From Alphaproteobacteria bacterium (lineage in GTDB: Bacteria > Pseudomonadota > Alphaproteobacteria > SP197): a DNA stretch of 64,000 bases. The stretch is taken from assembly GCA_965213815.1 (NCBI GenBank), contig OZ243917.1, positions 1,626,832-1,690,831 of the forward strand, given 5' to 3'. The notes under the pieces are model-generated. The model saw only the letters and a program-made list of their open reading frames with translations, was not told the origin of the DNA and searched no databases. The position numbers and the translations under genes are program-made. Positions 25,237 to 59,076 of the stretch are shown one piece after another (the first letter of the stretch is position 1; the number at the start of each line of letters is the position of its first letter).

Positions 25237-25472
25237 CCCTCCTTACCCACCAGTCACGACCGTCGCGGCGCCCATCGCTGTACGTGGGCGCCGGCGTGCG
25301 GCTGTCACGTCCGCAAAGGACGGGCCGAAGCCGCTCACGACGCCGCGAATCGGGTCAACCCCGGCAAGCAGACCGCACGTCAAATCGCCGAATCACACTC
25401 GGCGCAACCCAGTCCGGTCCTCATTCGCCCAGCGTGGGAAAGTCCTGTGGGAACATTGTATGGCCGCGGCAA

Positions 25473-28094: not shown

Positions 28095-28096
28095 GG

Positions 28097-41215: not shown

Positions 41216-41356
41216 TGCAAGTGGCTTCTGTGGTAGCGTCCGTAGCCGATGGCCTTCAACAGGGGATCCTTCGGCGGACGCGCCATGTCCGCACCATCGC
41301 CAGAAGGCCTTCGACAGTCGGTCGGGAATGCAAGTTCCCGGCAATCCGGAGTTGTC

Positions 41357-42298: not shown

Positions 42299-42641
42299 CG
42301 ATCAATGCACAGTGCTTGTCCGGTTGTCGTTCAGCACTTGTCTTGCCGACACGTCCGGAGTGCGCTGAAGGTCATCATTTTCTCGCGATCCGCTGCGTTG
42401 GAGACGACCAGGATGAAATCGGTGGCCTCTTGATGAAGTCGAGGCCCGTGGGTCCTCGATGGCCATGCGGTCACATCGCCGCGGGCCAGCCCCAGTCGAA
42501 GTTGGTAGGGGCTTGAACTATCCCAGCAGGACTTCAACGAGGTGTTGCTGCGGCTGCGCCTCTTGTCCTCCCCGGCTTGGCCGATGAACGGGCCACCGCG
42601 CGCCGGGTTCTGGGTGCGGATGGATCAGACGTATTACCGGG

Positions 42642-43694
42642 TCATTCCTGCAGCCGCCATCTCAAGGCGAGGTGGAGACCGATGTCGGGCGCGGACTGGC
42701 CGATGCCGTCGTCCTCCGTGACCGCGGCGTCGAGCACGAGGCGCTCGGTCAGCCGTAATGTGCCACCCATGCCCAGAATTACCGCGGTGTCCGAAAGCTC
42801 AGCCAGGTTGGAGGCGCCGTAGGGCGAGGAATGGGCGTCGATCTGTGCCGTCAGATGTAGATCCTCGAGCACCCGCCAAGTCACGCCGAGACGGCCAAAG
42901 GCGATGAACCGGCCGCCTGTTGCGGCGAGGCCTTCCGGTGCGGCGCTCGTGAGCGCACCGAGTGTCGCCGCGTACAGCCAGCGGCGCGAGATTTCGGATC
43001 CGGGAAAAGCGCCCGAAGTCTCCGCCCACGCTGATGCCGAAAATCTCCCCGAACCGGTCAGTGACTCCGGATCCCCGGTCGGAAGCTTCGCCATCGCACG
43101 CACCACCATGCCATCGTTCCGGAACGGCGGAGAGGCCAGCGCATAGCCCACCCCGAGGCTCGCGTCCCCCAGTGAAAGGACGTCGCGGTCTACGTCAGCA
43201 CGAGTTCCCATGCCGTCGGCATAGAGAAACGCTAGCTGGTCGCGTGGTGCCTTGTCTCGCTCGCCTTGGGGCAGGCTGAAAGTATCGTGCCAGCCCTCGA
43301 TAAATCCGTCGAAGACGCCTGCACTGTGTGCAACCGCCGGAATCTCGAGAAAGTACTCCCAGCCACCTCCGAGCCCGTGGCGCAGCGACAGTGCCTGGCG
43401 GTACGTCTCTCCGTCCATAACGACCCGTTCATCACCGACATAGTCGGCACGCATGTGCGACGCCATGTCAACAGAAGTGACCACTTCCCATGCGCCTTCG
43501 GGCATCACCCGGGCTCCAGACGAAGCTGGCACCCCATAGAGGAGATGGAACGGGTTGAGGTTCACCAGGCGCAGTGGTGTCGCTACACCGTGCTCCTCTG
43601 CGGAAACGGTCTGAGTGGCAGCCGACAGGATGCATAAGAGGAGCGCGTAGGAGAAGCCACGGCGACGGTGGAGGTAATCCATGATAGTGGTCAT
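42642..43694 (-). CDS. Predicted outer-membrane protein with a signal peptide (possibly DUF3187-like).
   Basis: Signal peptide MTTIMDYLHRRRGFSYALLLCILSAATQTVSA. Beta-rich composition. Family assignment uncertain. Confidence 0.45.
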   Translation of the reverse strand: MTTIMDYLHRRRGFSYALLLCILSAATQTVSAEEHGVATPLRLVNLNPFHLLYGVPASSGARVMPEGAWEVVTSVDMASHMRADYVGDERVVMDGETYRQALSLRHGLGGGWEYFLEIPAVAHSAGVFDGFIEGWHDTFSLPQGERDKAPRDQLAFLYADGMGTRADVDRDVLSLGDASLGVGYALASPPFRNDGMVVRAMAKLPTGDPESLTGSGRFSASAWAETSGAFPGSEISRRWLYAATLGALTSAAPEGLAATGGRFIAFGRLGVTWRVLEDLHLTAQIDAHSSPYGASNLAELSDTAVILGMGGTLRLTERLVLDAAVTEDDGIGQSAPDIGLHLALRWRLQE

Positions 43695-44103
43695 GCCGGT
43701 TCCTTTCATCGAGACTCCGCCTCCCTTGTCAATCGACGGGGCAGGACCGAAAGGCCAGCGTCACCCACCGGGTAATCCTCCGTCAACCGCCCTGGAGATC
43801 AACCCCGGCGATCGGGTGCCTGCGGCGAGGGAAAGGGCCCATGACGAAATGTGCGAGGACATCTGCTGTCGTCTATCGTGCGGAAGCCGGTGTTGCAAAT
43901 GACGCGTCACGCTTCGGTGCCATATCGACTCCGGTGCGTCCCGCTGTTGTCCGACGCTGAACCCGCTCGGGTCCGCCCGACGAATGTCCGTGCCTGTGTT
44001 TTGTAGCGCTGCGTATACCGTTGAAACCCAGCTGCACCGCTTGTCGTAACGTAACTGCTCACCCCTCCCTGGGCCACAGACGCGGCATATCCCTGGTGTC
44101 GGC

Positions 44104-44850
44104 ATGGCGATCATTGTTCGCTATGCGGACGATATTGCGGTCGGGTTCCAGTACAAGCGGGATGCGGAGCAGTACCTCCGCGACGTTCGGGAGAGGCTGG
44201 AGTGCTTCGGCCTCGGCCTTCACCCGGACAAGACCCGTCTCGTGGAGTTCAGGCGGTTCGCGGCTGCGAACCGTCGCAGTCGTGGGGCGGGCAGGCCGGA
44301 AACATTCGACTTCCTGGGCTTCACGCACTTCTGCACGACGACCCGGCGATGCCGCTTTCCGCTTGGTCGCAAACCGGTCGCGAAAAGGGTCAACAGGACT
44401 CTGGCGCGCATCGAGGAGGTTCTTCGCGAATGTTGGCATCACGACATCTGGGAGGTCGGGAAGTGACTGGGGCAAGTCTATCAGGGCTGGCTCAACTACT
44501 TCCCCGTCCCGGGGTCGGGCTGGTGGCTCATGACGTTCCGCCGCCGGCTGCAACGCTTGTGGATGCGGACGCTACGCCGTCGGTCCCGGCGAGACCGCTC
44601 CAACTGGAAGCGATTGGCGCGCATGGCCGAAGTCCTTTGGCCACACACGACGATCCGCCACCCATGGCCGGACCAACGGTTCGCCGTCAAACACCCGGGG
44701 CAGGAGCCGGATGGATTACCGTCCAAGTCCGGATTTGTGCGGGGGGGGGGCCGGGTAACCGGCATTCCTACCGCGACTGGGGAAGGGGTTCAGGAATGAC
44801 CCCTTCTACCCGGCCACTGTCACGCGCCGATGTCCTTGGCACCAGGTGCT
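44104..44850 (+). mobile_element. 5'-truncated group II intron 3' fragment. The RT starts at the YADD motif (MAIIVRYADDIAVG...LHPDKTRLVEF...FDFLGFTH), has a frameshift at 44466, then the maturase C-terminus (...WMRTLRRRSRRDRSNWKRLARM...) and domains V/VI.
   Basis: ORFs 44104..44466 and 44530..44799. Confidence 0.55.
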
Positions 44851-45063
44851 GAACCTGGAGAACTTCCTGGTCGAGTTCTGCGTCGGCTCGTAGCATGCAC
44901 GATAGGCATCGAAGGATCACATGATCTGCGCTGCTGCATTGTCCCAATTTCCGATCCGCGTCTCGCGGCGATCCAGCTCCGTGAGCGCCTGCCAACAATG
45001 AATCTCCCTTCGCGAGAGTAGTGCCTCTCTGGCCGTGACGCGGCCAGGGAGCGATTGGTGGTC

Positions 45064-46563
45064 CTACCGCAACTCGCCTCCAAAGGCGGCGGTGAGATCG
45101 TCGCGCTCCAGAACACCAGCTACAGCCTCGTGCCCTGGTCCGAAGAATCCGCCGTCCAGAACACCGGAGTCGTCGTTTGGTGCAGGGCGGTAATTCCCGA
45201 AGGTATCGCCATAACCTGTGTTCACTTGGATCGTGTAGTGCAGGTCGCCATCGCCCCACATAGTTCCTGTTCCCGGGTCCGATGGTTGACCTGCCCAGGA
45301 CTCCAGGCTCGTGAAGTCCACAGTTCCGTCAAGGTCAGCAAGATCAAGGGACATATCTGCATCGCCCATGACCGATCGGGCTGAGGGTGTGAAACCGACC
45401 AGCATTCCCGCCCAGCTCGCACTCCCCGACAGTCGGGGGTTGTCCCATATCCACGTCAGAGGCTCTGGACCCACCGCCCATGGCATGGCGCGGCCGTTCA
45501 TCAGACGCACGCCGAAGAGCGTGACATCCTCGGAGAGCAGACTGTCCGGACGATTCGGCACTGCCAACCCACCGAAGATATGGGTTGCCGTGTTGTCCCA
45601 CGGCCCGAGGTCGGATGCCAGTCCGACCGAAGTCGTGCCCGGTTGGAGTCTGCCGTAGGTGGCCAGCAACATCTCTTGGTCCAGCTGCGACAGCACGAAC
45701 GGGAGGCTGTTGTAGCTGTATGACATGATCGTGTCCGTGCGCCCGTAGAGTGGGACCGGATGCTCGCGGCCGAGGGAATGCAGAATCTCATGGACGAGCG
45801 TGTCCTCCATCTGGATCGCGCCACTCTCGACGTGTAGGTGCTGAGGGTGCGCGGGGTTGATCCAGATCGGAGCGGACCGGATTGAACCGTCCGGATTGGG
45901 ATCCCTTCTCCACGATGCGCCAAGCGTTGCCATGCTCGTTTGTTCCTGCCAAGTGGCAGGCCATTGGCTGCGGGGCGCGAACGTGATGAATATCTCGCCC
46001 AGGGCTTCGGTATTGCTACCTGCTGGCGCAGGCTGGGGGTCGAAGCCCACCTGCCAATCGCCCGGCAGGGCCGTGTTGATCATCTGGACCGCGTACTGCA
46101 CAGCCCCGATCAGATCGTCGGGAGTGCCGTGGGCCACCCTCACGGTTGGCGGCGCGATCCAGCGATCCAGATAACCCACGCCCTCCCGTATGTCGTCCTG
46201 CAATTCCGAAAGAAGGGTGCTGCGTCCGACGCCAGGACTGTCGATCCCATAGACAATCTCGATGCCGTCATATGTGCCGACAGCCGCGCCGACGGCCGAT
46301 CCGGGACGGATAATCGCATCGCCGCCGATGAAGTAGTAACCGGGCAAATCACTCCCCTCGATTACGGAAAGGTCGGTGTAGGGGAAGCCGGTTGGCGATT
46401 GACTGGCGGCCGTTGGAACGGTCGGTTTCATCGACTGTGGGGGCGCAACGGGCGTCGTGGGCCCCGTCGTCGACATGTTCATGGCGGACATGCCGCCTCC
46501 GCCACCTCCACAAGAGGCAATCAACAGCGTGGCGACGAAAGCCGCGATCATTCGCAATGTCAT
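45064..46563 (-). CDS. Surface lipoprotein with a metzincin zinc-metallopeptidase domain (HEILHSLGREH = HExxHxxGxxH; Met-turn IMSY). Lipobox LLIASC followed by poly-Gly. C-terminal SLP-type barrel (...LTAAFGGELR).
   Basis: Motifs in the 499-aa ORF. Confidence 0.65.
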   Translation of the reverse strand: MTLRMIAAFVATLLIASCGGGGGGMSAMNMSTTGPTTPVAPPQSMKPTVPTAASQSPTGFPYTDLSVIEGSDLPGYYFIGGDAIIRPGSAVGAAVGTYDGIEIVYGIDSPGVGRSTLLSELQDDIREGVGYLDRWIAPPTVRVAHGTPDDLIGAVQYAVQMINTALPGDWQVGFDPQPAPAGSNTEALGEIFITFAPRSQWPATWQEQTSMATLGASWRRDPNPDGSIRSAPIWINPAHPQHLHVESGAIQMEDTLVHEILHSLGREHPVPLYGRTDTIMSYSYNSLPFVLSQLDQEMLLATYGRLQPGTTSVGLASDLGPWDNTATHIFGGLAVPNRPDSLLSEDVTLFGVRLMNGRAMPWAVGPEPLTWIWDNPRLSGSASWAGMLVGFTPSARSVMGDADMSLDLADLDGTVDFTSLESWAGQPSDPGTGTMWGDGDLHYTIQVNTGYGDTFGNYRPAPNDDSGVLDGGFFGPGHEAVAGVLERDDLTAAFGGELR

Positions 46564-47535: not shown

Positions 47536-47752
47536 CGCTCTATGTGCTTGCGGCTCATCTTCAGACATCCGGACCTCGGCTAAGTTCAGATATGACAATT
47601 GCGTGGTGATGCTCTGTCGATGTTGTAGACGAATCTGAGGTTTGTTCCGGGGTAGACGGTCCAGGTCCGGTTGATCTGGCCGATCAGGGATTTTTCGGTC
47701 GCGTTGTTGGCCAGCCTGAGGACTTCGATCCTGACGATACCCTGTACTCCGG
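47536..47752 (-). mobile_element. Right-end remnant (about 217 bp: IR TTCAGACATCCGGACCTCGGC plus the last 50 or so transposase codons) of an IS related to the 19232-21602 element. It truncates the 3' end of sulfotransferase 1.
   Basis: IR and C-terminal peptide (...LANNATEKSLIGQINRTWTVYPGTNLRFVYNIDRASPRN) homologous to 21400-21602. Confidence 0.55.
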
Positions 47753-48586
47753 GGGAAGATAGCCAAAACGTTCCATCTGGACGCGGTGTTGGGAACAGAT
47801 CCGTTCCACCTGTTCGGGTGTCAGTTCCTGTCGCCAATGCCCGGCTGTGCCCCGTCGGAAGAACTTCTCCTGGGTAGGTGACTTCTCCTTAAAGCCCCGT
47901 TGATCCTCCTGACTCCTCAAGGCCTTGAACGAGGAATTCCTGATCGCCCGCAGAAGTCTTTGCCGGGATGGCTTCAGACCGAGAAACCGCGCCGTCGCCC
48001 CGAAGGTTCTCGAGGGAAGGTCCAGCATGTCCTCATAGCGCACGACGTGAAGGCGCGGATCAGGGTTTCCAGTCCAGCTCTCGACGTTCTGCGACCAGCT
48101 TCCAAGAATGATCCCGACGTTGTTCTTTGTCGGATCGTGCGGCGTTTCGAGGTTGTGGGTCGCCATGTGATCGATCGCCTCGTCGACATCGAATCCCATG
48201 AAATCGGCGAACGACAGGGCAATATCCAGAGGGTTTCGGACGATGTATATAGCACCGGATGTCACGGAAAGGTTGATGGCCGGATACCCTCTTATCGTCA
48301 TCAGCGCATTGTGCGTCTTGCAAAAGAGTGTGTATTTCTGCGCCTGTGCGATCAACTCGTTCACCCTTGGCCGCATGCTCGCCACATCCTTGGATGACCA
48401 CTCAGCGAGTGGTCTTTTGTCGAGCATTTGAAACCACATGAGCGCGCCATCGCTCTGGAAGAGTTCGCCCGCCATCTGGTTGACGTCAAACGCTCGCTCG
48501 CGGTTGTTGAAGAGGTTGTACAGGAATGCCCGCATCCAAGTGTTCCCCGATTTCGGGAAACTTGCGAGCCAGACAATGTTACCCAT
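47684..48586 (-). CDS. PAPS-dependent sulfotransferase paralogue 1 (5'-PSB motif SFPKSGNTW). Its last few codons are replaced by IS-derived sequence.
   Basis: Sulfotransferase P-loop motif. About 65% identity to paralogues 2 and 3. Confidence 0.7.
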   Translation of the reverse strand: MGNIVWLASFPKSGNTWMRAFLYNLFNNRERAFDVNQMAGELFQSDGALMWFQMLDKRPLAEWSSKDVASMRPRVNELIAQAQKYTLFCKTHNALMTIRGYPAINLSVTSGAIYIVRNPLDIALSFADFMGFDVDEAIDHMATHNLETPHDPTKNNVGIILGSWSQNVESWTGNPDPRLHVVRYEDMLDLPSRTFGATARFLGLKPSRQRLLRAIRNSSFKALRSQEDQRGFKEKSPTQEKFFRRGTAGHWRQELTPEQVERICSQHRVQMERFGYLPPEYRVSSGSKSSGWPTTRPKNP

Positions 48587-48653
48587 GGAATGCAGTCATA
48601 ATAAAGGGAGCGACCGCGAGGGCCGCTCCCTTCAACCCGTCCCGAAAGAGACC

Positions 48654-49658
48654 TCAGAAACTGATGCCGAGCGCGACACCGGCGAAGGTCGAGTCGTTGC
48701 CCGTGACATTGTTCGAGTCGCTGCCGACAGCGCCAGCAAGGCTGATACCTGGACCGAGGTTGTAATTGGCCAGCAGGCGGGCCAATTCGGCGTCGGTGTT
48801 CGCATCTTCCTGCTCCACGGCACCGAAGTTCGCGCTGACGGTCAGGTTGCCCATGCTGTAGCTGATACCGGCGTCGAATTGCACGAGGTCATCGCCACCT
48901 GCATCGTAGTCGGTTGTTCGGAAGGAACCGCCGACCGAGACATCGGACATCGAGACCACGACACCCATACTCATGTCTTCGGTCGTAGTATCAGCTGCGT
49001 TATCGTCCAGCGACGCGTAGCCGACCGAGAAGGCGACACCTGCATCACCGAACGATCCGTCATAGCGAATGCCAACGGACGCGACCTCATTGCCTTCGCT
49101 CTGGTCTGCCGGGCTGTTGCGGGCTTCCTCACCGGCTTCCGGTGCATAGGAAAGACCGAACTGGATCCCGTTGAACGACGGCGAGAAGTACATGATGGAT
49201 GCGGAATCGCCAGCGTCTACACCTGCGAACGTGCTCATCCAAGTCGCATTGCTAGAGCCTTCGAACGCACTACTGATGCCAGGAGAATATGCCCAGTACG
49301 GCGTGTTAAGACCGTAGAAGTACGTTGCATACGGCGCCGCCGTACCCATCTGGGCCGATGCCGCGTCGTCGTTGCCGATACGCAGCGTGCCGAACGAACC
49401 CTCGATGTAAGCGTAGGTCTCATCCATCTGATCGCTGGCTTGCTCGCCCTCAAGTTCCATGCGTACGCCGATCTCAAGGCCGCTGTCGAGCACAGTGCTG
49501 CCAGCAAAGCTGATTTCTACGTCGTTCGCGATGGAGATGTCGTCATTGTCGGGCGTGGCGTCGTTGTCGGAGACGGCGACACCCCAGTGCGAATTACCGC
49601 CAACACTGAGCGAGATTGGCTCGGCCATCATCTCATCGGCGGCCACACCAGTGGGCAC
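48654..49658 (-). CDS. Porin cassette 1 (Rhodobacter-type general porin, ends ...GISF). It lacks a start codon, RBS and signal peptide. Homology begins at the shared core CCACTGGTGTGGCCG (49640-49654).
   Basis: Porin similarity to 57111..58148. Hand translation upstream shows no signal-peptide coding. Confidence 0.65.
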   Translation of the reverse strand: MPTGVAADEMMAEPISLSVGGNSHWGVAVSDNDATPDNDDISIANDVEISFAGSTVLDSGLEIGVRMELEGEQASDQMDETYAYIEGSFGTLRIGNDDAASAQMGTAAPYATYFYGLNTPYWAYSPGISSAFEGSSNATWMSTFAGVDAGDSASIMYFSPSFNGIQFGLSYAPEAGEEARNSPADQSEGNEVASVGIRYDGSFGDAGVAFSVGYASLDDNAADTTTEDMSMGVVVSMSDVSVGGSFRTTDYDAGGDDLVQFDAGISYSMGNLTVSANFGAVEQEDANTDAELARLLANYNLGPGISLAGAVGSDSNNVTGNDSTFAGVALGISF

Positions 49659-50019
49659 GTCCCGGTAGCCAACACATTGATATGGTGCGGCATCAGGTCA
49701 GCAGAGATTGGGGGGATGAGAGAATCCAGCCCACTAGTTTCCCGGGCCTGTGACTGATGACCATGGGCCAGAAGTTGACGATGCCATCGATCGCTGGACC
49801 GGAAGTCGGGATCAGCGACTCCTTGCTCACCTCGAATGTCGCATGTCCTCGGGAAGGCAGAAGCACCTCACGCACATGCACCACACGAAGCAGAACGAGG
49901 CCGGAACTTCTTGAAAGTCTCCGACTCTACCCTCCGGTTCAGCCGGCACTTTCGCCGGCGCCAAGGTGAACGAGTCACTCATCTGCACAAGACGACCTTG
50001 TCACACATACCGTCAACAC

Positions 50020-51588
50020 TCAGGCCTGTTCGCCTCTGACACTCAACAGATTTCTCTCGGCCTGTCCGAAGACAATGCCCAAGAGATGAACGGGCTCGCC
50101 ATGGTCACGATACGTCTCAGCGTAGCCCCGCTCCCGCATCTGGCGGATTGCCTCTTCCAGAGCCGCCCCAACCTCCCTATCGGCCATCTTGAACTCCATG
50201 ACGAATACCTGGCCGTCCAGAAACACCACCACGCCGGCCCGGCCACGGGATGATGCCTCCTCCACGCGAAGGCCCACATCGATGGCCCTGAAACACATGT
50301 AAAGGAGGCTCGCATACCATGCCTCGTACCGCGCAAGATCCCCATGACCTTGCCACGGGTACGGGATCCCCGAGATATACGAACGAAGCCTCTTTCCGAA
50401 CCCTTCGAAGTCGTTTGCCTCCAGAAACCCACAGAGTTCCCTGCCGTGGTCCGATGTCTCCTTCGCCGCGGCTCCCAAGTGTCCCAAGAGACCGTCGTTC
50501 AGGCTCCACTGTACTTCGAAATTGGGATAGTCCAGCCTGTAGAGCGTTCGGGGACCTTGACTTTCCTCTGCCGTGATCGTCAGGTAGCCTGCCTGAAAGA
50601 GAAGTGCGTCCACGGAGATATCGTCCACATCAAATGTCGCCATCAACCGCTCGTCCGCCAACCGGTTCTCAAGATCGATCGGGTTCACGTGCTTCTCCAT
50701 CAGAAGACGGTAGAGAAACTCCGGTGAACCGGTCTCGTACCACCACGGCCGGAAGGTTCTGCGGTCAAACAACAGCAGCACGTCAAAGGGGTTGTAGACT
50801 TTCTCACTGCCCAACCAGTGATAACCGTTGTACCAGCGCCGGATCTCGTCACGGTTGAGCTCGTCAAGTTCCACCGCAAATGTTCCATCAAGATCCTTCT
50901 CCGTGTAGCCGCAGAGGGTCGCGTATCGCGGGTCAAGGCTGATGTCCTTCAGATTGTTGAGGCCCGAAAACAGACTGACCTTGGAGAACATGCTCACCCC
51001 GGTCACAAGCACGAAGCGGACGTGTTCGGCGCTGCCCTTGATGATTCCGTAGAGACCTCTGAGTGCATCCCGATTCGCCTTAGCAAGGGACGGATCTTCC
51101 AGCACATCCAGAATTGGCTTGTCGTACTCGTCCACCAGAACCGCGACCCGCTGACCGGTGGCATGGTGGAGGCGGTCCAGGAGATCCAACAAACGCACTG
51201 GACCGGTACACTCAGGTGAGGGTGCAAGGCCGGCGTTGCGTTCGATGATCGTCAACTGGCCGATAATGCTACGCTCGACATCCTCGGGCTCGTTGTATCT
51301 TCCGTCAAAACTCAGCCGGACTACTGGATGCTTCACGGACCAGTCCCAGTGGCGGTGGATGTCGAGCCCTCGGAACAGCTCCTCTTTGCCTTCAAAAAGG
51401 GATTTCAGCGTGTCCACCAGCAAGCTCTTGCCGAATCGACGCGGACGGGAAAGAAAATAGTGCCGTCCCTCGTCCACCAGACGCCGAATGATCGGCGTCT
51501 TGTCGACATAGTAGCAGTCTTCTTCCCGAATCGTTCGGAAATCCTGGATCCCGATCGGGAGTCGACGGTGCTCCACAGCTCTCTCCAT
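50020..51588 (-). CDS. AAA-ATPase-like (PF09820-type N-terminus: GIQDFRTIREEDCYYVDKTPII...FLSRPRRFGKSL) fused to a PD-(D/E)xK nuclease family-9-like C-terminus (DUF1703-type).
   Basis: N-terminal and C-terminal motifs in the 522-aa ORF. Confidence 0.6.
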   Translation of the reverse strand: MERAVEHRRLPIGIQDFRTIREEDCYYVDKTPIIRRLVDEGRHYFLSRPRRFGKSLLVDTLKSLFEGKEELFRGLDIHRHWDWSVKHPVVRLSFDGRYNEPEDVERSIIGQLTIIERNAGLAPSPECTGPVRLLDLLDRLHHATGQRVAVLVDEYDKPILDVLEDPSLAKANRDALRGLYGIIKGSAEHVRFVLVTGVSMFSKVSLFSGLNNLKDISLDPRYATLCGYTEKDLDGTFAVELDELNRDEIRRWYNGYHWLGSEKVYNPFDVLLLFDRRTFRPWWYETGSPEFLYRLLMEKHVNPIDLENRLADERLMATFDVDDISVDALLFQAGYLTITAEESQGPRTLYRLDYPNFEVQWSLNDGLLGHLGAAAKETSDHGRELCGFLEANDFEGFGKRLRSYISGIPYPWQGHGDLARYEAWYASLLYMCFRAIDVGLRVEEASSRGRAGVVVFLDGQVFVMEFKMADREVGAALEEAIRQMRERGYAETYRDHGEPVHLLGIVFGQAERNLLSVRGEQA

Positions 51589-52202
51589 CGATCACCGGAT
51601 GCAACCTTACCACACCCGGTTCGCAGGCATGCCATCAGGGTCGTGGTCTTTCTCGAGCAACACGTCACGGCTCCGGCATCCGTTCGGGGCTGCCCACCGC
51701 CATATCGAAGTCGACACCAGCGCGGATCACGAAGCTCGACACCGTGAGCACCACAACGGCGGGCGTCCACAGACCCACCACCTATCGCCTGTTATCACGG
51801 TCACGCTTGGCGGTGCGCGACGCACAACTCGCGGAGAAACGTGGATCGGCTGCTCCTTCGTTCCAGAGGACTTTCACCTCCAACCTTCCGCCACTTCGCT
51901 TGGCACGTGTCTCTACCGCGACCGATCCTCCAAGAACATGGGACTCGGGCGAAAGTCCATGCCTGGCTCGCTGTGAGAGAGGAACCACAGCGCATGGGAG
52001 CAGCAATTCACTCCGGCGATCTTGAGATGGATGGAGCGCTTGCCACCCGGTTTCTTGCCGGCTTGGCAGGCTGTTCGACCATCAGGCCCAGACGCCTTGA
52101 TCACGTGCTGCAAGGCAAATGCGCACAACGTGTTTGACCGTCCTCGAGACAGTATTAGGTGTCATGCGCATCCTGCAGCCCAGCCAAGCGTTTGCAGTTC
52201 AT

Positions 52203-52430
52203 TCACCCGGGCCAACGGATCATGAGACCAAGAACTGCCACGGCGAATGCCAAGAGCCCTGCAATCGTCACAATCAACCGAGTTTCCCTCTTGGCGGCTT
52301 CCGCATCCCGCTTGGCGTTATCCTCGGCCAGTCGGGCAATATCGGTCTTGTACTCGGCCTGCATAGTCTTCATGCGTTCCTCCAGGACGGCCAGCTTCGC
52401 CGCCATTTCCACGGTGCCTGGGTCACTCAT
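52203..52430 (-). CDS. Small coiled-coil protein with a C-terminal TM helix (MSDPGTVEMAAKLAVLEERMKTMQAEYK...IAGLLAFAVAVLGLMIRWPG). Function unknown.
   Basis: Track ORF 52203..52487; start at an internal Met. Confidence 0.3.
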   Translation of the reverse strand: MSDPGTVEMAAKLAVLEERMKTMQAEYKTDIARLAEDNAKRDAEAAKRETRLIVTIAGLLAFAVAVLGLMIRWPG

Positions 52431-52499
52431 GTGTAACAGGGTAGCCGATGCGTCACGCGTTGGCGAACTCCCCTGATCAAGGCACAACGGAGCAGGCTC

Positions 52500-53345
52500 T
52501 CAGCTGTCCTCAGAGACGTAGCCGAAGCGTTTCATCTGCTCGCCATGAGTCTCACAGATCTGCCTGATCTGGCTCTCGCTCAGTTCATCCTTCCAAGTCC
52601 CGACCTTACCGCGCCGGAAGAATCTCTTCTGATGCTCCGACCTCTCCTTGAACCCGCCAGTGGCTTCTTGACTTTGAAGGGTCTTGAACGAGGAATGGCG
52701 GATGGCCCGCAACAACCTCTGACGCGACGGCTTCAGACCGAGGAACCGCGCTACTCCCCCGAAGGTCGCCAACGACTTTTCGACCATGTCCTCATACCTT
52801 ACCACATGGAGACGCTCACTCGCCCTGCCGGTCCAGCTCTCGACGTGCTGCGACCAGCTCCCCGACATGATCGAGACATTGTTGCGCTCCGGGTCGTGGG
52901 GCATCTCTAGGTAGTCGGTCGCCATGATCTCGATCGCCTGGTCAAGAGCGATTCCCATGAAGTCCGCCGAGGAGGAGGCCACATCGAGGGGATTACGTAC
53001 GATATAGATGGCACCGGATGTCACGCCCAGATTGATGGTCGGATGCCCTTGCACCGTCATCAGTGCATTGTGTGTTTTGCAGAATATGGATCTCGGCTGT
53101 CCCTGGGCGATCAGATTACAGACCTTCGGCCGCATGGCGGCGACATCCTCGGACGACCATTCGCTCACCGGTCGCTTGTCCAGCATCCTGAACCACATCA
53201 GCGATCCGTCGCTCTGTAGGATCTCGCCCTGCATCCTGTCCAGGTTAGCCGGCCGCGCCTCGTTGTGGAAGAGATTGTGAAGGAACGCCCGCATCCACGT
53301 GTTGCCGGATTTCGGATAGCTGGCCAGCCAGACGATGTCGCCCAT
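52500..53345 (-). CDS. Sulfotransferase paralogue 2 (intact, 281 aa).
   Basis: SYPKSGNTW motif. Full-length relative to paralogue 3. Confidence 0.75.
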   Translation of the reverse strand: MGDIVWLASYPKSGNTWMRAFLHNLFHNEARPANLDRMQGEILQSDGSLMWFRMLDKRPVSEWSSEDVAAMRPKVCNLIAQGQPRSIFCKTHNALMTVQGHPTINLGVTSGAIYIVRNPLDVASSSADFMGIALDQAIEIMATDYLEMPHDPERNNVSIMSGSWSQHVESWTGRASERLHVVRYEDMVEKSLATFGGVARFLGLKPSRQRLLRAIRHSSFKTLQSQEATGGFKERSEHQKRFFRRGKVGTWKDELSESQIRQICETHGEQMKRFGYVSEDS

Positions 53346-53415
53346 GCACTAAACCCCAACGGAAAGGAGCGGTCACAAAGGACCGCTCCTCACAACATTA
53401 GACCTATGACTTCAA

Positions 53416-54390
53416 TCAGAATGAGACCAAGAACGCCACCGCACCGAATGAGGTATCCTCATTGCTCGATGGGGAATCACGTCCGACGACACCGGCAACA
53501 TTAACGCCTGGACCAAGATTATATGTCGCCATCAGACGGGAGAAGTCAGTATCAACATTTGCGCTATCCTGGCTCTTGTTGCCAAAATTGGCGCTGATGG
53601 CCCAAGGGCCTTCACCATACATGGCGCCGACATCGTACTGGACCACATCGTCCACTCCATCCATGTCCGTATCATTCGACCTATAGGACCCACCGGCAGA
53701 CACTCCAGACATGGTCACTACCAAGCCTGCGTTCCAGTCAGTCACAGTCCGATCGGCCGCACCACCTGCTGCTGCCACGTCCGTGCTGGCATAACCGGAA
53801 GCAATCGTGACACCAGCATCACCGACAGCGCCGTCATAGCGCAGACCCACGGAGTACACATCATTACCTTCGTCAGAATAAACGGTATTTGACTGCGCTT
53901 CTGTTCCGGCCTCGGGAGCATATGACGCACCAAATTGGATACCGTTGATTACAGGCGAGAAGTACAGCAAGGATGCACCGCCAGCGCCTTCGCCTGCAAA
54001 TGTTGAATGCCACTCTCCACTGAGATGTCCAGACCAAAATGGAGTGTTGATACCATAGAAGTATGTGGCATAGGGAGCAGCTGTCGACATCTTGTACGAA
54101 GCAGTGTCCTCATTGCCTATACGAATTTCTCCGAAGGAACCGCTGAGATAGGCGTACTTCCCGTCACCCTGATCCTCACTTTCTTCACCTTCGATATCAA
54201 TTCTCACACCGACTTCGAGACCACTGTCAAGAACCGTAGATCCCGTGAACACAAGCAAGATGTCATTCGAGATTGCGATGTCATCCTTGTCGGCTTGCGT
54301 GTCGCTGTCGACAATTGCCACGCCCCACATTGACCGACCGCCAACGCTGAGCGAGATCGGTTCGGCCATCATCTCTTCGGCAACGGCCAC
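53416..54390 (-). CDS. Porin cassette 2. It is silent, with no signal peptide or start context; an upstream in-frame stop lies in AT-rich non-homologous DNA. Homology begins at the core CCACTGGTGTGGCCG (54385-54399).
   Basis: Hand translation of the 5' junction. The porin body is intact and ends ...FLVSF. Confidence 0.65.
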   Translation of the reverse strand: MAVAEEMMAEPISLSVGGRSMWGVAIVDSDTQADKDDIAISNDILLVFTGSTVLDSGLEVGVRIDIEGEESEDQGDGKYAYLSGSFGEIRIGNEDTASYKMSTAAPYATYFYGINTPFWSGHLSGEWHSTFAGEGAGGASLLYFSPVINGIQFGASYAPEAGTEAQSNTVYSDEGNDVYSVGLRYDGAVGDAGVTIASGYASTDVAAAGGAADRTVTDWNAGLVVTMSGVSAGGSYRSNDTDMDGVDDVVQYDVGAMYGEGPWAISANFGNKSQDSANVDTDFSRLMATYNLGPGVNVAGVVGRDSPSSNEDTSFGAVAFLVSF

Positions 54391-54517
54391 ACCAGTGGGC
54401 GTATACGCTATATTAACTATCTGTTAACGTGCTTATAATGCTCCCTGCACAATTGCAATGTCGGGAGGTGCATCATCGGATCTTCCCATGCCTGCAATTT
54501 CAGCGAAGGGAGGACCC

Positions 54518-55642
54518 ATGGCCAAGACCAAACTCACTGAAGCCTGCGTAAGGGCACTGCGGCCCCGCAAGAGTGTCCGAGACATTCGGGACTCGCAGCT
54601 CAGAGGCTTCGGTGTGCGCGTCTATCCATCTGGCTGCAAACGATACTTCATCCACGTTCAGCACGAGGGACATCGTGTTTGGAAAATCGTCGGTGATGCT
54701 GCTGCCCTCCGGCCTGCCGAAGCACGGGATCGGGCGAAGACCATGATGGCGGCGACACGCAAGGGAACCTCCCCTGCGACGGATCGCATACTGTTCGAGG
54801 CGGTGGCCGAAGAAACCTTCCACCGGTACGGAAGAAACAACTGGAAGCCCCGTACTTTCAAGGTCAATCGGTACTGCCTGGAAAACCAGATTCTGCCATG
54901 GTTCAAGGGGCGTCAGATCGCCGGTATCACCGATGGAGACGTGCAGGAGTGGTTTGCGTCGCTGCATGCGACGCCAGTAGCGGCCGATCGCGCTGCACCG
55001 GTTCTCTCTGTCATTATGACCTGTGCCGAAACATACGGATACAGGTCCGCGGAAAGTAATCCCTGCAAGGGCATCAAGCGCTACCGGAGGCAGGAAAGGG
55101 AACGCTTCATGTCGGAGGAAGAGTTACGCCGCTTGGGGGTCGCGCTGAAGAAGTATGAGGACACAGGCCCCATGTGTGTGGCCATCATTCGACTGTTGCT
55201 GCTGACCGGCTGCCGCAAATCGGAGGTGGTGACACTTAAGTGGAAGAACTATCGGGACGGACATGTTCACCTCAGCGACTCCAAGGCGGGTCCGCGGATG
55301 GTCTGGCTTTCGACTTCGGCCCGCCGGATCCTGGATGGCATCCGCAGGGAATCCACGTGGGTCTTCCCATCACCAAGAACTGATAAGTCACTGACTACCG
55401 CACCTGTTGAGCGCTTCTGGCACCGTATTCGATCGGAAGTGGGACTACAGGACGTGCGCCTTCACGACCTGCGTCACACTTACGCCAGCATTGCTGTCAT
55501 GCAAGGTGAGAGTGTTCTAACCGTCGGCCGGCTGCTTGGTCACAACAATCCAGAGACAACTCTCAAGTACACCCATCTAGCGCACGGCAAGGTAGTGGAG
55601 GCTGCTCGGGCCATGGGCGATGTTCTTGGAGGGTCTGCGTGA
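54518..55642 (+). CDS. Tyrosine integrase/recombinase 1 (P4-type; ...VRLHDLRHTYASIAVMQGESVLTVGRLLGHNNPETTLKYTHL). It lies inside the putative invertible segment.
   Basis: Integrase core-binding and catalytic motifs. Track ORF 54458..55642; the start is probably MAKTKLTEA. Confidence 0.75.
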   Translation: MAKTKLTEACVRALRPRKSVRDIRDSQLRGFGVRVYPSGCKRYFIHVQHEGHRVWKIVGDAAALRPAEARDRAKTMMAATRKGTSPATDRILFEAVAEETFHRYGRNNWKPRTFKVNRYCLENQILPWFKGRQIAGITDGDVQEWFASLHATPVAADRAAPVLSVIMTCAETYGYRSAESNPCKGIKRYRRQERERFMSEEELRRLGVALKKYEDTGPMCVAIIRLLLLTGCRKSEVVTLKWKNYRDGHVHLSDSKAGPRMVWLSTSARRILDGIRRESTWVFPSPRTDKSLTTAPVERFWHRIRSEVGLQDVRLHDLRHTYASIAVMQGESVLTVGRLLGHNNPETTLKYTHLAHGKVVEAARAMGDVLGGSA

Positions 55643-56772
55643 TGAATCAAAGGACGAAACTGACAGAGTCACGTATCAGAAGACTCAAGCCGGCCGATCG
55701 CGAGTACACCATCCGCGACACTGTCGTGCCAAGCCTTGGCGTACGGGTTCACCCCTCAGGAGGAAGCAGCTACGTACATTTCAGCAATGGCACGAAGGTG
55801 TCGCTTGGTCCTACCATGCACCTGGAAGTTCGGGAAGCTCGAGTCCAGTGCCTTACACTGCTGGTCGACGGGCGGCCGAGAAAGGATCCGGTTCCCCTGT
55901 TCCAAGACTTCACCATGCATGAATGGCGGAACACGTGGATCCATCGGAGCAAGCCTGCAACGATCCAATGGAGGGAGAAGTGTCTGAAACGCCAGTTGTT
56001 CCCAGCATTCGCGGCTTGTCGTTTGGACAGGATCACGACTGCGATGGTTCAACAGTGGTTCGACAACTACAGCAGGACCGCTCCGGGCGGAGCCAATCAC
56101 TGCCTCAAGGTCCTTCGCCAGATCTTCAACCATGCTATCTCCTGCGACCACATCACATCGAATCCGGCGAGGAATGTCAGACCCAACCGCAGGCGGAAAC
56201 TCACACGCTTCCTTTCGAGTGAAGAGCTTGGACGATTGCATTGTGTGCTCGACCAGCATGACCGCGAGTCACCTCACAGGCTGTCGCAGCGTCAACAGAT
56301 CGATATCATTCGCCTGCTCCTTCTGACCGGCTGCCGCAAGAGCGAGATCGTCCGTCTTCGCAGGGAGGAAGTGTCCGGTGATTGTCTCCACCTGGTGGAC
56401 AGCAAGACGGGACCACGTACGGTGTTTCTGAACGAAGAGTCGAGGGTCATCATCGACCGCCACATCTCAGGCCACAGCGCCTTCCTGTTTCCGTCGCCCA
56501 GAGATCCCGGGCGCCCTCTCCATGGCGAGCTTGCGCTCTGGTATACAATTCGCAGGCAAGCGGGCATCGAGGATGTACGCCTTCATGATCTGCGTCATAC
56601 GTATGCCAGCCATGCCGTCATGCAGGGAACACCTCTGCCGGTCGTGTCACGTCTGCTTGGACACTCACGACCAACCATGACGATGCGGTATGCACACATG
56701 GGCGACCGCGAAACCGAGGAGGCTGCGGAGCGCATCGGAGCCGTGATCGCCGGAATGCTGGACATCGGATGA
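55639..56772 (+). CDS. Tyrosine integrase/recombinase 2, a paralogue of recombinase 1. It overlaps recombinase 1 by 4 bp.
   Basis: Motifs ...VRLHDLRHTYASHAVMQGTPLPVVSRLLGHSRPTMTMRYAHM. Confidence 0.75.
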   Translation: MMNQRTKLTESRIRRLKPADREYTIRDTVVPSLGVRVHPSGGSSYVHFSNGTKVSLGPTMHLEVREARVQCLTLLVDGRPRKDPVPLFQDFTMHEWRNTWIHRSKPATIQWREKCLKRQLFPAFAACRLDRITTAMVQQWFDNYSRTAPGGANHCLKVLRQIFNHAISCDHITSNPARNVRPNRRRKLTRFLSSEELGRLHCVLDQHDRESPHRLSQRQQIDIIRLLLLTGCRKSEIVRLRREEVSGDCLHLVDSKTGPRTVFLNEESRVIIDRHISGHSAFLFPSPRDPGRPLHGELALWYTIRRQAGIEDVRLHDLRHTYASHAVMQGTPLPVVSRLLGHSRPTMTMRYAHMGDRETEEAAERIGAVIAGMLDIG

Positions 56773-57110
56773 CAAGCGCTGTCCGGGAAACACTTGATGG
56801 GCGCCGCAGGTGATCGGCGGTACTCCGGGATGACCGCCGACCGCGAGGCTCCCAGTGATAAGACCAAGCAACCTTTCCAGAAATGCAACTGGACCTTGCT
56901 TGAGTGCCCTCTGATCGGGCCGCGGAAGCTAACGCCAACCGGCCAGAGGTTATGACTGTGCACAGCCTCTGTTGCAATAGTGCAACACCTGTTGACGTTA
57001 CACCATACATGCCTTTGACGGAACAGTGGTATCACGCTACCTAACCTGCGGCCAGCACCCGTTGTGCGGGCAATTCCTTGATTAGGATCCTACATGAAAG
57101 GAAGTGAACA

Positions 57111-58148
57111 ATGAAAAAGGCCCTTATGGGTACCACTGCCCTTGTGGCGGCCGCGGTGACCACTGGTGTGGCCGTTGCCGAAGAGATGATGGCCGAGCCG
57201 ATCTCGATGACCATTGGCGGCAGGTCACACTGGGGTGTGGCGATGTTTGACAATGAGGCAAGGTCGAACGATGACGATGTCCGGATTTCGAACGATGCTC
57301 TGCTGACGTTCTCGGGTTCAACGGTTCTTGACAGCGGCCTTGAAATCGCCGTGCGCATCGAGATTGAGGGCGAGCAGTCCGGTGATCAGGGCGATGCCAA
57401 ATATGTCGACATTTCAGGCAGTTTTGGCGAAATCCGTATTGGTAATGACAGCCCTGCCGGCAAGAAGTTGGCTACGACCGCACCCTACGCTACGTACTTC
57501 TATGGGATCAATGACAACTATTGGGCGCAGTCAGTGTCAAGCGTTGGCTCTAGTCCCTGGATGGACACGTACGCGAACGCCGGTGCAGGAGATTCCGCGT
57601 CGCTCCTGTATTTCTCGCCTGTGTTGAACGGATTCCAGTTTGCCGTTTCCTATGCGCCGGAAGCTGGTGCAGAGGCACAGTCGGCCACTGCGAGTACTGC
57701 TGATGGAAATGATGTGGTCTCTGTCGGTCTGCGTTATGACGGCGCCTTCGGCGATACCGGCGTTACCGTTGCTGCCGGATACGCGAGCAATGACGCGACC
57801 ACGGCAACCACTTCGGAGATGGCTGGCGGGGTAGTCGTCTCCATGTCGGGTGTGTCACTTGGTGGCTCCATGAGTGTGATGGACGACGATGCGGGCAGCG
57901 ACGACCTGACGCAATTCGACCTTGGCATCAAGTATGGCGAAGGTCCGTGGTCAGTCAGTGCGAACGTGGGTAGTCAGCAAGATGATGATGCTATGCTCGA
58001 CAATGACTTCGCGCGGCTGCTCGCCAACTACAATCTCGGCCCTGGCATCAACATTGCCGGCGCAATCGGTGTCGACTCACCCAACGCGGGTGCCAACGAC
58101 GGACAGGATACTTCCTTCGCAGGTATTGCGCTGGGGGTCAGTTTCTGA
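57111..58148 (+). CDS. Porin, the expressed copy. It has an RBS (GGAAGTGAACA-ATG), a signal peptide MKKALMGTTALVAAAVTTGVAVA and a C-terminal F. The core site CCACTGGTGTGGCCG lies at 57160-57174, inside the signal-peptide codons.
   Basis: Gram-negative porin features. Two paralogues elsewhere. Confidence 0.8.
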   Translation: MKKALMGTTALVAAAVTTGVAVAEEMMAEPISMTIGGRSHWGVAMFDNEARSNDDDVRISNDALLTFSGSTVLDSGLEIAVRIEIEGEQSGDQGDAKYVDISGSFGEIRIGNDSPAGKKLATTAPYATYFYGINDNYWAQSVSSVGSSPWMDTYANAGAGDSASLLYFSPVLNGFQFAVSYAPEAGAEAQSATASTADGNDVVSVGLRYDGAFGDTGVTVAAGYASNDATTATTSEMAGGVVVSMSGVSLGGSMSVMDDDAGSDDLTQFDLGIKYGEGPWSVSANVGSQQDDDAMLDNDFARLLANYNLGPGINIAGAIGVDSPNAGANDGQDTSFAGIALGVSF

Positions 58149-58230
58149 CCATCAGACCGATACTTGCTTTTATGTTCTCTGGAGCGGCCCTTGTGGCCGC
58201 TCCCTTTTCTTCCAGGGCATTGAAGACGCC

Positions 58231-59076
58231 ATGGGCGACATTGTCTGGCTGGCCAGCTATCCGAAATCAGGCAACACGTGGATACGCGCGCTTCTTCACA
58301 ACCTCTTTCGGAACTGGAGCGACCCTGTCGACGTCAACAGTATGCACGGAGACCTCTCCCAGAGTGACGGCATGCTCGCGTGGTACCGGATGCTGGACAA
58401 ACGCCCCTGCCAGGAGTGGAGTTCCGAAGACGTGGCGCGCATGCGCCCCAAGGTAGACGCACTGATTGCCAAGACATCGCCAGGGTCCATTGTCTGCAAG
58501 ACCCACAACGCACTGCTCACGACACGCGGCTGTCCGACCATCAATCTGGAGGTGACATCCGGCGCAATCTACATAGTGAGAAACCCGCTGGATGTAGCCT
58601 CCTCGTTCGCTGACTTCCTGGGAGTTGACCTGGACAAGGCCATTGAATTCATGGGTACGGATTATCTGGAGACACAGAGCGATCATTCGCTCGACAATGT
58701 TCAGATATTGCTTGGAAGCTGGTCGCAGCATGTCAAGAGCTGGACAGGTAGACCCAACCGTCAGCTTCACGTGATTCGCTACGAAGACTTGCATGAGGAT
58801 CCGACTCGAACATTGAGACGCCTGGCGCGGTTCCTTGGACTGAAGCCGTCGCGGCAGAGATTGCTGCGTGCAATCAGGAACTCGTCGTTCAAGGTCATGC
58901 AGGGTCAGGAGAAGAGACAGGGCTTCAAGGAACGCTCCCCCTTTCAGCAACGCTTCTTCCGTCGCGGCAAGGCCGGGTCCTGGAAGGGCGAACTGAGCGA
59001 AAGCCAGGTCAGGCGGATTTGCGAAGACCATGGCGAACAGATGGAGCGCTTCGGCTACCTGCCCGAAGGATCCTGA
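58231..59076 (+). CDS. Sulfotransferase paralogue 3, co-transcribed downstream of the expressed porin.
   Basis: SYPKSGNTW motif. Start at MGDIVW, which is internal to track ORF 57922..59076. Confidence 0.8.
   Translation: MGDIVWLASYPKSGNTWIRALLHNLFRNWSDPVDVNSMHGDLSQSDGMLAWYRMLDKRPCQEWSSEDVARMRPKVDALIAKTSPGSIVCKTHNALLTTRGCPTINLEVTSGAIYIVRNPLDVASSFADFLGVDLDKAIEFMGTDYLETQSDHSLDNVQILLGSWSQHVKSWTGRPNRQLHVIRYEDLHEDPTRTLRRLARFLGLKPSRQRLLRAIRNSSFKVMQGQEKRQGFKERSPFQQRFFRRGKAGSWKGELSESQVRRICEDHGEQMERFGYLPEGS

Follow-up and report, generated by a model that had tools for sequence, protein, structure and literature searches.

How can one start codon and one signal peptide serve three porin genes? The question is raised by a 64-kb stretch of DNA with 62.2 % guanine plus cytosine (GC), hereafter called the window (contig OZ243917.1 of the alphaproteobacterial assembly GCA_965213815.1, positions 1,626,832 to 1,690,831), in which three cassettes, each consisting of a porin gene and a downstream sulfotransferase (ST) gene, are grouped around a short segment that carries two tyrosine integrase genes, int1 and int2. 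An earlier note on this DNA had proposed that inversion of the segment moves the promoter, the start codon and the signal peptide from one porin to another. The analysis described here indicates that porin cassettes are likely switched at this locus by site-specific inversion, or were so until very recently. Related loci and proteins are designated by L and P numbers, respectively, and the three copies of the short sequence at which the porin genes resemble each other are termed cores, E at the expression site and S1 and S2 at the silent sites. The Pfam scan covered porin 3, ST1, ST3 and both integrases, and porins 1 and 2 as well as ST2 were placed as paralogues by alignment. The cores, cassettes and integrase genes are located as follows.

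49645-49654, minus strand: recombination core S1 (CCACTGGTGT), 4.7 kb further left than S2
54389-54398, minus strand: recombination core S2 (CCACTGGTGT), left boundary of the 2,761-bp segment
57160-57169, plus strand: recombination core E (CCACTGGTGT), inside the signal-peptide codons (T-T-G-V), right boundary of the segment
48654-49644, minus strand: silent porin 1 body, intact, with stops just 5' of the core; gene-called as P0121 from GTG
47684-48586, minus strand: ST1, downstream gene of silent cassette 1, 300 amino acids, intact open reading frame (Sulfotransfer_1, E=1.8e-29)
53416-54388, minus strand: silent porin 2 body, intact, with in-frame stops just 5' of the core; gene-called as P0123
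52500-53345, minus strand: ST2, downstream gene of silent cassette 2, 281 amino acids, intact open reading frame, with 86-87 % identical orthologues in L001, L002 and L083
57111-58148, plus strand: porin 3 open reading frame (Pfam Porin_4, E=2.9e-45)
57170-58148, plus strand: porin 3 body, expressed in the present state, holding the signal-peptidase site and the whole mature porin
58231-59076, plus strand: ST3, downstream gene of the expressed cassette, 281 amino acids (Sulfotransfer_1, E=3e-34)
54518-55642, plus strand: int1, tyrosine integrase of 374 amino acids counted from Met21 (Arm-DNA-bind_3, Phage_int_SAM_3 and Phage_integrase)
55639-56772, plus strand: int2, tyrosine integrase of 377 amino acids (Pfam Phage_integrase), overlapping int1 by 4 bp

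The 15-mer CCACTGGTGTGGCCG, already recognized in the earlier note as shared by the three porin loci, occurs exactly three times in the 64 kb (49640-49654 and 54384-54398 on the minus strand, 57160-57174 on the plus strand), compared to 0.24 copies expected by chance. Its full length is shared within the window, but across all relatives only the 10-mer CCACTGGTGT is invariant, and it was found at all E and S sites in eight loci. Core E is oriented on the plus strand and cores S1 and S2 on the minus strand, so that every E/S pair is inverted, and the segment enclosed by the inverted cores E and S2 (54399-57159) measures 2,761 bp and carries int1 and int2, as had been noted before. Alignment of the three junctions revealed that DNA similarity sets in abruptly and exactly at the core, and that there is no homology between the expressed and the silent copies 5' of it. 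In the core region cassettes 2 and 3 have 37 identical bp in common (S2 versus the expression site), cassette 1 differs by a 3-bp deletion after CCACTGGTGTGGCC, and the cassettes are 84 % identical over approximately 90 bp after the core. The claim that the loci are unrelated upstream of the core therefore holds for the onset of similarity, but not for the two silent flanks, which have an AT-rich element in common.

The window contains a single expression site (56773-57174), composed of a candidate promoter, a ribosome-binding site, an ATG and 16 signal-peptide codons, and the one exon with ribosome-binding site and ATG (57097-57159) has to serve three porin bodies. The reading frame of porin 3 starts with MKKALMGTTALVAAAVTTGVAVAEEMMAEP, is directly preceded by AAGGAAGTGAACA-ATG, and encodes the signal peptide MKKALMGTTALVAAAVTTGVA; together with the sequence AAGGAAG, these features bear out the claim that the plus-strand copy alone has a ribosome-binding site, an ATG and a signal peptide. 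Upon translation, porins 1 and 2 have neither a start codon at their 5' end nor a signal peptide, and the stops 5' of the core agree with the description of these copies as abruptly beginning. In-frame GTG codons do exist at or near the cores, at 54390 (P0123) and 49658 (P0121), which the description had missed, and the gene products called from them would be porins without a signal peptide. The division into three porin-ST cassettes was correct as well, except that cassette 1 extends over 47684-49654 and the interval 48654-47684 assigned to it covers ST1 only; the distances between porin and ST, announced as 65-85 bp, are 82, 70 and 67 bp. The elements of the expression site and of the two silent flanks are the following.

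56773-57110, plus strand: expression-site leader, conserved in five loci up to the core, to which the promoter is provisionally assigned
56880-56889, plus strand: GAAATGCAAC in the leader, nearly invariant in five loci
56970-56987, plus strand: perfect palindrome TGTTGCAATAGTGCAACA in the leader, nearly invariant in five loci
57015-57020 and 57037-57042, plus strand: candidate promoter TTGACG-N16-CTACCT, conserved in five loci
57099-57105, plus strand: Shine-Dalgarno sequence AAGGAAG ahead of the porin 3 ATG
57111-57159, plus strand: constant 5' part of the signal-peptide exon (MKKALMGTTALVAAAV plus the first base of Thr17), from translation
54399-54517, plus strand: S2 5' flank, which is the int1 leader, with the AT-rich element GTTAACAGATAGTTAAT on the minus strand and a putative promoter role
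54434-54439: TATAAT in the S2 flank, pointing toward int1 and overlapping the AT-rich element
immediately before the int1 ATG at 54518, plus strand: Shine-Dalgarno sequence GGGAGG in the S2 flank
49655-49700, minus strand: S1 5' flank, with the degenerate AT-rich motif ATCAATGTGTTGG 14 nt from the core

In the five loci, the conservation of leader and exon extends to the core and ends there, and it is this conservation on which the proposal of a promoter in the leader rests. Two of the leader elements (GAAATGCAAC and TGTTGCAATAGTGCAACA) contain TGCAAC and could be bound by a regulator or, as arm-type sites, by the recombinase. The flanks of the silent sites are characterized by an AT-rich element (GTTAACAnATAGTTA or ATCAATnGTTTGG) about 15-33 nt 5' of the core, which was found in the window, L001, L002, L083, L093 and L097 and is absent from the expression site; motifs of the ATCAATGTGTTGG type occur at the same distance from the core in four silent sites of L093. 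The AT-rich element could serve the recombinase as an accessory site, act as the promoter of the integrases, or do both. In L093 it also occurs without an adjacent integrase.

The position of the core within the porin gene determines what an inversion would exchange. The signal-peptidase site (VA-EE or AA-DE, cleaved at the hyphen) lies 3' of the core, so that the whole mature porin would be exchanged and no constant residue would be left in the mature protein. The AlphaFold model of the porin is a 16-strand barrel (predicted local distance difference test score 83.5), in which mean column conservation amounts to 0.86 in the periplasmic turns, 0.73 in the strands and 0.60 in the predicted extracellular loops, and of the 110 inserted alignment columns, 108 map to extracellular loops, with L5 alone accounting for 44. 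On this model, the concentration of variation in the loops fits surface-directed diversification. The solved structures closest to ST3 are cytosolic SULTs, which depend on 3'-phosphoadenosine-5'-phosphosulfate, and the bacterial enzymes Teg12 and StaL. NCBIfam provided no specific family for either the ST or the porin.

Both integrases appear equipped for catalysis. The open reading frame of int1 runs from 54458, the start used throughout the family is Met21 at 54518, and the protein is 100 % identical to P0001; its closest solved structure is 5c6k, deposited as 'Integrase'. int1 and int2 are full-length paralogues with 39 % identity, and the catalytic residue set R-K-HxxR-H-Y is complete in both. 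The tandem overlapping pair is conserved in L001-L018, and in all six porin loci that include the pair it occupies the same position, between an S core and the E leader.

The evidence that the exon moves between cassettes comes from relatives of the locus. The layout in which a silent porin-ST cassette and an exon-fused porin-ST cassette diverge from a segment containing int1, int2, the leader and the exon recurs in L001, L002, L094 and L097, of which L094 comprises three cassettes and has a permease/AMP-ligase flank in common with the window. Porin-ST pairs next to tandem integrases, which the earlier note had pointed to as a sign to look for in related genomes, are thus present in at least five related genomes, represented by these four loci and by L083, where a silent cassette, the integrase pair and the exon are found but the expression site is 'empty'. 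The exon of L001 and L002 leads into a porin-ST pair orthologous to silent cassette 1 of the window (ST 84 % identical, porin 68-69 % identical), which places the ST1 orthologues in the expressed cassette of these loci, and the silent cassette of L002 is of window type 2. Finally, the same integrase pair is accompanied in L093 by four silent cassettes within 10 kb.

A protein search with porin 3 and two predicted recombinant porins as queries yielded 166 relatives, of which the best 120 were classified. Of these best 120 matches, 20 carry the constant N-terminus MKKALMGTTALVAAAVT[TS]GV, the end of which extends into the core codons, with different bodies behind it, whereas 71 have no signal peptide and start at or after the core, and 29 have a different signal peptide without the core. 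The in-frame fusion of exon and body thus occurs naturally in relatives, and bodies of one and the same type were encountered in both states, as listed below.

Body type 1: exon-fused in P0122; truncated at the core in P0141 and P0154
Body type 2: exon-fused in P0130 and P0210; truncated at the core in P0145, P0167 and P0187
Body type 3: exon-fused in P0124 and P0153; truncated at the core in P0126, P0131, P0132 and P0138

Among the clusters at 90 % identity or more that were opened, exon-fused and truncated members stand together in 6 of 10, which points to recent and repeated exchange; window porin 3 itself is identical to P0279 and shares a cluster of at least 90 % identity with the silent copy P0126. 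At the DNA level, the exon in L098 is joined exactly at the core to a body that is 94.3 % identical over 1,223 bp to the silent cassette of L001.

The most direct evidence is provided by L096 and L097, two contigs of one long-read metagenome assembly (ERZ24894577), which represent both orientations of a homologous locus in a single metagenome. L097 reads from left to right as a permease gene, ST_A, exon-fused porin A, int2 and int1, with the series from int1 to ST_A directed leftward, followed by silent porin B, ST_B, a peptidase S8 gene and a hydrolase gene, directed rightward. L096 starts in the 3' end of int2 and continues rightward with the leader, the exon, porin B, ST_B, the peptidase S8 gene and the hydrolase gene. 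Positions 533-6601 of L096 and 9933-16003 of L097 are 99.87 % identical, starting exactly at the core, and positions 1-532 of L096 are the reverse complement of the expression site of L097 except for one 3-bp indel. In L096 the sequence follows porin B from the first cassette-specific base after CCACTGGTGT onward, which places the crossover inside the 10-mer. The product expected when the promoter, start codon and signal peptide are moved to another porin, as the earlier note had predicted, is therefore found in L096 relative to L097, and the alignment of 5' regions by which it had hoped to define the crossover puts it within the core.

On the basis of these observations, an expression-site type of DNA inversion is proposed that would select which of the three porin-ST cassettes is expressed. 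In the present state, the locus would be read from left to right as ST1 and porin 1, directed leftward from S1; the AAA-ATPase gene; ST2 and porin 2, directed leftward from S2; the segment with the putative integrase promoter, int1, int2, the leader and the exon; and, beyond E, porin 3 and ST3, directed rightward. Recombination between E and S2 would invert 54399-57159 (2.76 kb) and lead to expression of porin 2 and ST2, and recombination between E and S1 would invert 49655-57159 (7.5 kb) and lead to expression of porin 1 and ST1, in either case by fusing the promoter and exon in frame (...V-T-T-G-V-A...) to another body. The translationally coupled int1 and int2 would catalyse the inversion. 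Following the exchange between E and S2, S1 would be in direct orientation to E, and access to cassette 1 would then require a deletion or a return to the present state; the nested inversion put forward in the earlier note would consequently work from the present state, but not from the state in which cassette 2 is on. Deletions between direct cores may explain empty sites such as that of L083. It may be speculated that the difference between the 5' sides of E (signal-peptide exon) and S (AT-rich element) limits recombination to E/S pairs. Switching would, we infer, still continue in the genome of the window.

The larger, 7.5-kb invertible segment would also include a passenger between cassettes 1 and 2.

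50020-51588, minus strand: gene with AAA-ATPase_like and PDDEXK_9 domains (Pfam)

PADLOC gave no defence-system match among the parts of the locus. An AAA-ATPase_like plus PD-(D/E)XK homologue, likewise without a PADLOC match, lies near the integrase pair in L093 (14455-16011).

The question of whether the STs take part in the switch leads to the region between porin and ST, where a GC-rich hairpin with a T-rich tail stands behind each porin.

58181-58203, plus strand: hairpin with T-rich tail between porin 3 and ST3, terminator-like, with a 9-bp stem of which 8 pairs are GC, and the tail CTTTTCTTCC
48603-48629, minus strand: GC-rich hairpin between porin 1 and ST1, conserved; repeat families D7 and I14
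about 53370-53395: hairpin between porin 2 and ST2

The hairpin is conserved in six cassettes with compensatory changes in the stem (GGAGCGGCC/GGCCGCTCC, GGAGCGGTC/GACCGCTCC and GGGGCGGCC/GGCCGCCCC), which suggests selection on its structure as an attenuator, terminator or stabiliser. Its terminator-like character is among the points in favour of an alternative that we consider unlikely, though it deserves to be weighed first, namely that only the porin switches and that the STs of all three cassettes are transcribed independently, their pairing with porins being a matter of linkage. Each ST has its own ATG, promoters could be situated inside the 3' ends of the porin genes or in the AT-rich S flanks, promoter-like hexamers are present in the S2 flank, the ST types are more conserved than the porin types and are partnered with different porin types across genomes, and the cassettes of L093 are not paired with STs. 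Against this, the end of the hairpin is only 20-27 nt away from the ST ATG in all cassettes, which leaves no room for a separate ST promoter and makes attenuated read-through the simplest route to ST expression. Moreover, the TATAAT of the S2 flank is directed to int1, away from the cassette, and the linkage of porin and ST is maintained in all cassettes of the window, L001, L002, L083, L094, L096 and L097. The downstream ST would thus probably be transcribed by read-through of the hairpin only, and it is plausible that the ST would switch together with its porin.

A second alternative accepts the past inversions in the clade, but regards the arrangement as now fixed here and cassettes 1 and 2 as decaying pseudogenes. 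In its favour are the single state of the genome of the window and the one arrangement of the L083 population with its empty expression site; these and the further observations that follow weigh against the inversion switch. Only one arrangement was seen for the genome of the window itself, its exact proteins being found on a single 3.85-Mb contig; exact-protein look-ups of int1 (from Met1), porin 3, ST2 and P0001 gave no match. L096 and L097 diverge 6 kb downstream and differ in their insertion sequences, and may be two co-resident strains with fixed states instead of one switching population. The contig of L083, MPMV01000027, comes from bin56, an alphaproteobacterial sponge symbiont (host Aplysina aerophoba) that is assigned to clade EF100-94H03 and has 63.7 % GC (PMC5649159). 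At positions 12540-12620 of L083, and also in L084-L088 and L095, the leader and exon are intact and are followed, after ACCACTGGTGTG, by unrelated DNA and then a stop (directly after MKKALMGTTALVAAAVTTGVTQ); two NikA-like genes come after this empty expression site, and the same arrangement is present in contigs from several samples. The empty site may be an OFF state or a deletion product, and it shows that such loci can decay. In this Aplysina population (L083-L092 and L095) a single arrangement is seen wherever the contigs of several samples reach the junction, and none of its contigs breaks at the core, which gives no sign of frequent switching; a metagenome-contig search with the exon as probe returned one contig, L095, of the same population and arrangement as L083, and no alternative junctions. 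In addition, a scan of the leader for the sigma-70 consensus found no promoter, such a scan being uninformative for Alphaproteobacteria, and most of the distant int1-int2 pairs have neither porins nor flanking repeats, from which it follows that the pair is not exclusively the invertase of loci of this type. Nevertheless, no interruption is found in either the two silent porins (approximately 330 codons each) or the two silent STs, the cores have stayed perfect, E and S2 have 37 identical bp, both integrases are intact, and bodies with at least 90 % identity occur in both states among close relatives. A fixed relic is therefore quite improbable in our view, and an inversion switch that is active, or was so very recently, agrees better with the integrity of its parts.

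RecA-dependent homologous recombination or gene conversion, similar to that of Campylobacter fetus sap or Neisseria pilE/pilS, could in principle shuffle the same cassettes, with the integrases as unrelated genes of a mobile element. The 84 % identity after the core would offer a substrate, and the integrase family is multi-copy and often not linked to porins: int1 has 4,606 matches at E<1e-20, of which the closest relatives (72-77 % identity) were followed to their contigs, and in a genome-contig search with the int1 alignment, in which the best match listed was 65 % identical, none of the 80 listed loci had porin or ST neighbours. However, the junctions in L096/L097 and L098/L001 lie exactly at the 10-bp core, at the edge of the homology and not spread through it, and the position of the integrase pair is constant in the six porin loci. 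The silent copies, without homology 5' of the core, would moreover offer only a very short substrate for reciprocal homologous exchange. Recombination of this type is thus very unlikely to be the explanation, and site-specific recombination at the core is preferred.

The weakest alternative, an integrative mobile element with two integrases and an outward promoter that inserted in a porin gene and left truncated porins as debris, is hardly credible, since the arm-binding domains of the integrases, which most resemble phage and island integrases, and the abundance of mobile DNA in the window (group II introns and other integrase remnants) are outweighed by one 5' end for three bodies, by two complete mature-porin bodies that diverge from the segment where an insertion would leave co-oriented 5' and 3' gene halves, and by the occurrence of both segment orientations in a relative. 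An integrative element bounded by attL and attR was rejected as well, the flanking cores being inverted and not direct and the flanking porin bodies being divergent, and an assembly chimera was considered and rejected.

The number of cassettes ranges from 2 to at least 10 per genome. The upper end is represented by the genome of L093 (contig of 1,373,385 bp, ERZ25067984), which encodes at least 10 cassette-type porins of 365-479 amino acids with long loop insertions, one of which (P0162) has a signal peptide. Transposase_31/DUF4351 genes flank the integrase pair of L093, and the 10 kb around the pair yielded no expression-site leader.

More distant int1-int2 pairs (51-54 % identity) in metagenome-assembled genomes (MAGs) of Pseudomonadales, Vicinamibacteria and Aestuariivita were found between inverted repeats in three cases.

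L015, 9241-9898 and 15349-16006: inverted repeat of 658 nt, 93 % identical, covering the 5' ends of two divergent open reading frames of 1,237 and 1,283 amino acids
L017, 7638-8662 and 12011-13035: inverted repeat of 1,025 nt, 95 % identical
L012, 8285 and 5567: inverted repeat of 55 nt

No repeat of at least 15 nt adjoins any of nine other pairs. For gene families other than this one, too, the two integrases may constitute an invertase. A wider reading is put forward only tentatively, and we doubt that it will hold as a whole: int1 and int2 could form a dedicated two-subunit invertase module that is in wide use among sponge-associated bacteria, with an exchange restricted to E/S pairs in the manner of attP/attB, and by which a porin and a surface-sulfating enzyme would be replaced together, coupling the variation of a protein to that of a glycan or lipid, as phage receptors or in host recognition, in a single flip. 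The related pairs of L015 and L017 are situated between other inverted paralogous genes. The minus strand of the window contains, at 25459-28116, short pieces with 41-50 % identity to int2 and int1, which look like a degraded second integrase pair.

The surroundings of the locus contain further mobile and surface-related elements. Three group II introns were detected with Rfam (1766-1908 plus 3577-3732; 3781-3923 plus 5592-5747; and 39164-39450 on the minus strand), two of which have identical scores, are 2,015 bp apart and look like a tandem duplicate, and reverse-transcriptase open reading frames that appear frameshifted are located at about 38-39 kb. To the left of the cassettes lies a surface-protein-like island (39630-46563), which includes two acidic putative lipoproteins without a Pfam match (39630-41183 and 45064-46563, the latter with the metalloprotease-like motif HEILHSLGREH), a XerC-like recombinase (41249-42298) and a DUF3187 protein (42642-43709). 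The region of L002 and L083 that matches the island contains genes for SlipAM (surface lipoprotein assembly modifier) as well as further integrases, and the island may constitute a further locus of surface variation.

Phages use porins as major receptors, and porins are also targets of immune or host recognition. Replacement of the whole porin, probably together with an ST, would allow an uncultivated sponge symbiont to vary its surface without mutation, and evasion of phage or of host recognition may be speculated to be the purpose. The sponge matrix is rich in sulfated polysaccharides (PMC5649159), which makes a variable bacterial ST a testable lead for host mimicry or recognition. Besides this biological role, loci of this kind confound MAG assembly and annotation, since gene calling turns the silent copies into 'porins' that lack a signal peptide, and the compact 10-bp core with its two-integrase module could serve as a recombination tool.

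Programmed inversion is a well-documented means of changing the coding sequences of hsdS, pilV, phage tail fibres, mycoplasma lipoproteins and Bacteroides SusC/SusD. The closest parallel is found in the mycoplasmas, where Mycoplasma pulmonis vsa (HvsR), M. agalactiae vpma (Xer1) and M. bovis vsp (Mbr) each have a single expression site, which for vsa involves a recombination site within the 5' coding region. The logic of the window locus is the same, with one promoter and 5' end, 5'-truncated promoterless paralogues, a short shared inverted site and a nearby tyrosine recombinase. Site-specific inversions in mycoplasma surface-protein gene families, with proposed recombination sites in the 5' regions of the genes and a gene for a recombinase of the lambda-integrase family near the locus, have been described (PMC2268961). 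Unlike these systems, the window locus belongs to a Gram-negative host, its cargo is a 16-strand outer-membrane porin plus a cytoplasmic ST, and instead of one Xer-like enzyme it has two overlapping paralogous P4/P2-like integrases with arm-binding domains, which ride on the invertible segment; in addition, a distinct AT-rich 5' flank sets its silent sites apart from the expression site.

Two tandem paralogous tyrosine recombinases beside an invertible promoter element are also known from Escherichia coli fim (FimB/FimE), and in this respect the locus is similar. However, fimS is a 314-bp non-coding ON/OFF promoter inverton of one operon, whereas the recombinases of the window overlap by 4 bp and are inside the invertible segment, and compared to both fim and hin, the repeats lie inside signal-peptide codons and inversion would swap gene pairs instead of turning a gene OFF. 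In the R64 shufflon (Rci, pilV), a tyrosine recombinase acts on multiple sites in both orientations, the asymmetry of which restricts productive pairings. R64 swaps 3' exons under a fixed promoter and 5' exon, whereas in the window the promoter and 5' exon would move to fixed, complete 3' bodies, and cargo and recombinase subfamily differ as well. In Campylobacter fetus sap, a promoter-bearing segment inverts between divergent paralogous surface-protein genes, and nested inversions reach distant cassettes. That system is RecA-dependent and relies on a conserved 5' coding region of approximately 600 bp which every homologue possesses, start codon included, in contrast to the silent copies of the window, which have no 5' ends, and to the crossover confined to the 10-bp core in relatives. 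Of the likenesses drawn in the earlier note, the one to vsa fits in its logic, and those to sap and to the pilV shufflon fit in part.

The Bacteroides SusC/SusD shufflon also operates on two-gene units (susC followed by susD) and exchanges the promoter and 5' end, and, as in the window, its targets are outer-membrane proteins. A general porin of the Porin_4 family in a different phylum is set here against a 22-strand TonB-dependent transporter, and the partner gene encodes an enzyme, a sulfotransferase, and not a surface lipoprotein; the targets are thus Porin_4 and Sulfotransfer_1 proteins and not SusC/RagA-SusD. SusC/RagA is among the targets recognised in a systematic survey of gene-altering inversions, which also gives an enrichment of genes for SusD and for tyrosine recombinases/integrases near the targets and whose main text contains neither the word 'porin' nor the word 'sulfotransferase' (PMC9881135). 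Literature searches likewise retrieved no programmed inversion of a classical general porin or a sulfotransferase and no porin shufflon, so that the claim of a previously undescribed system stands for the cargo, but not for the switching logic, which has the precedents given above. The locus accordingly rates as a known type of mechanism, in which the porin and ST cargo, the coupled integrase pair, the asymmetric sites and the occurrence in uncultivated sponge-symbiont Alphaproteobacteria are new.

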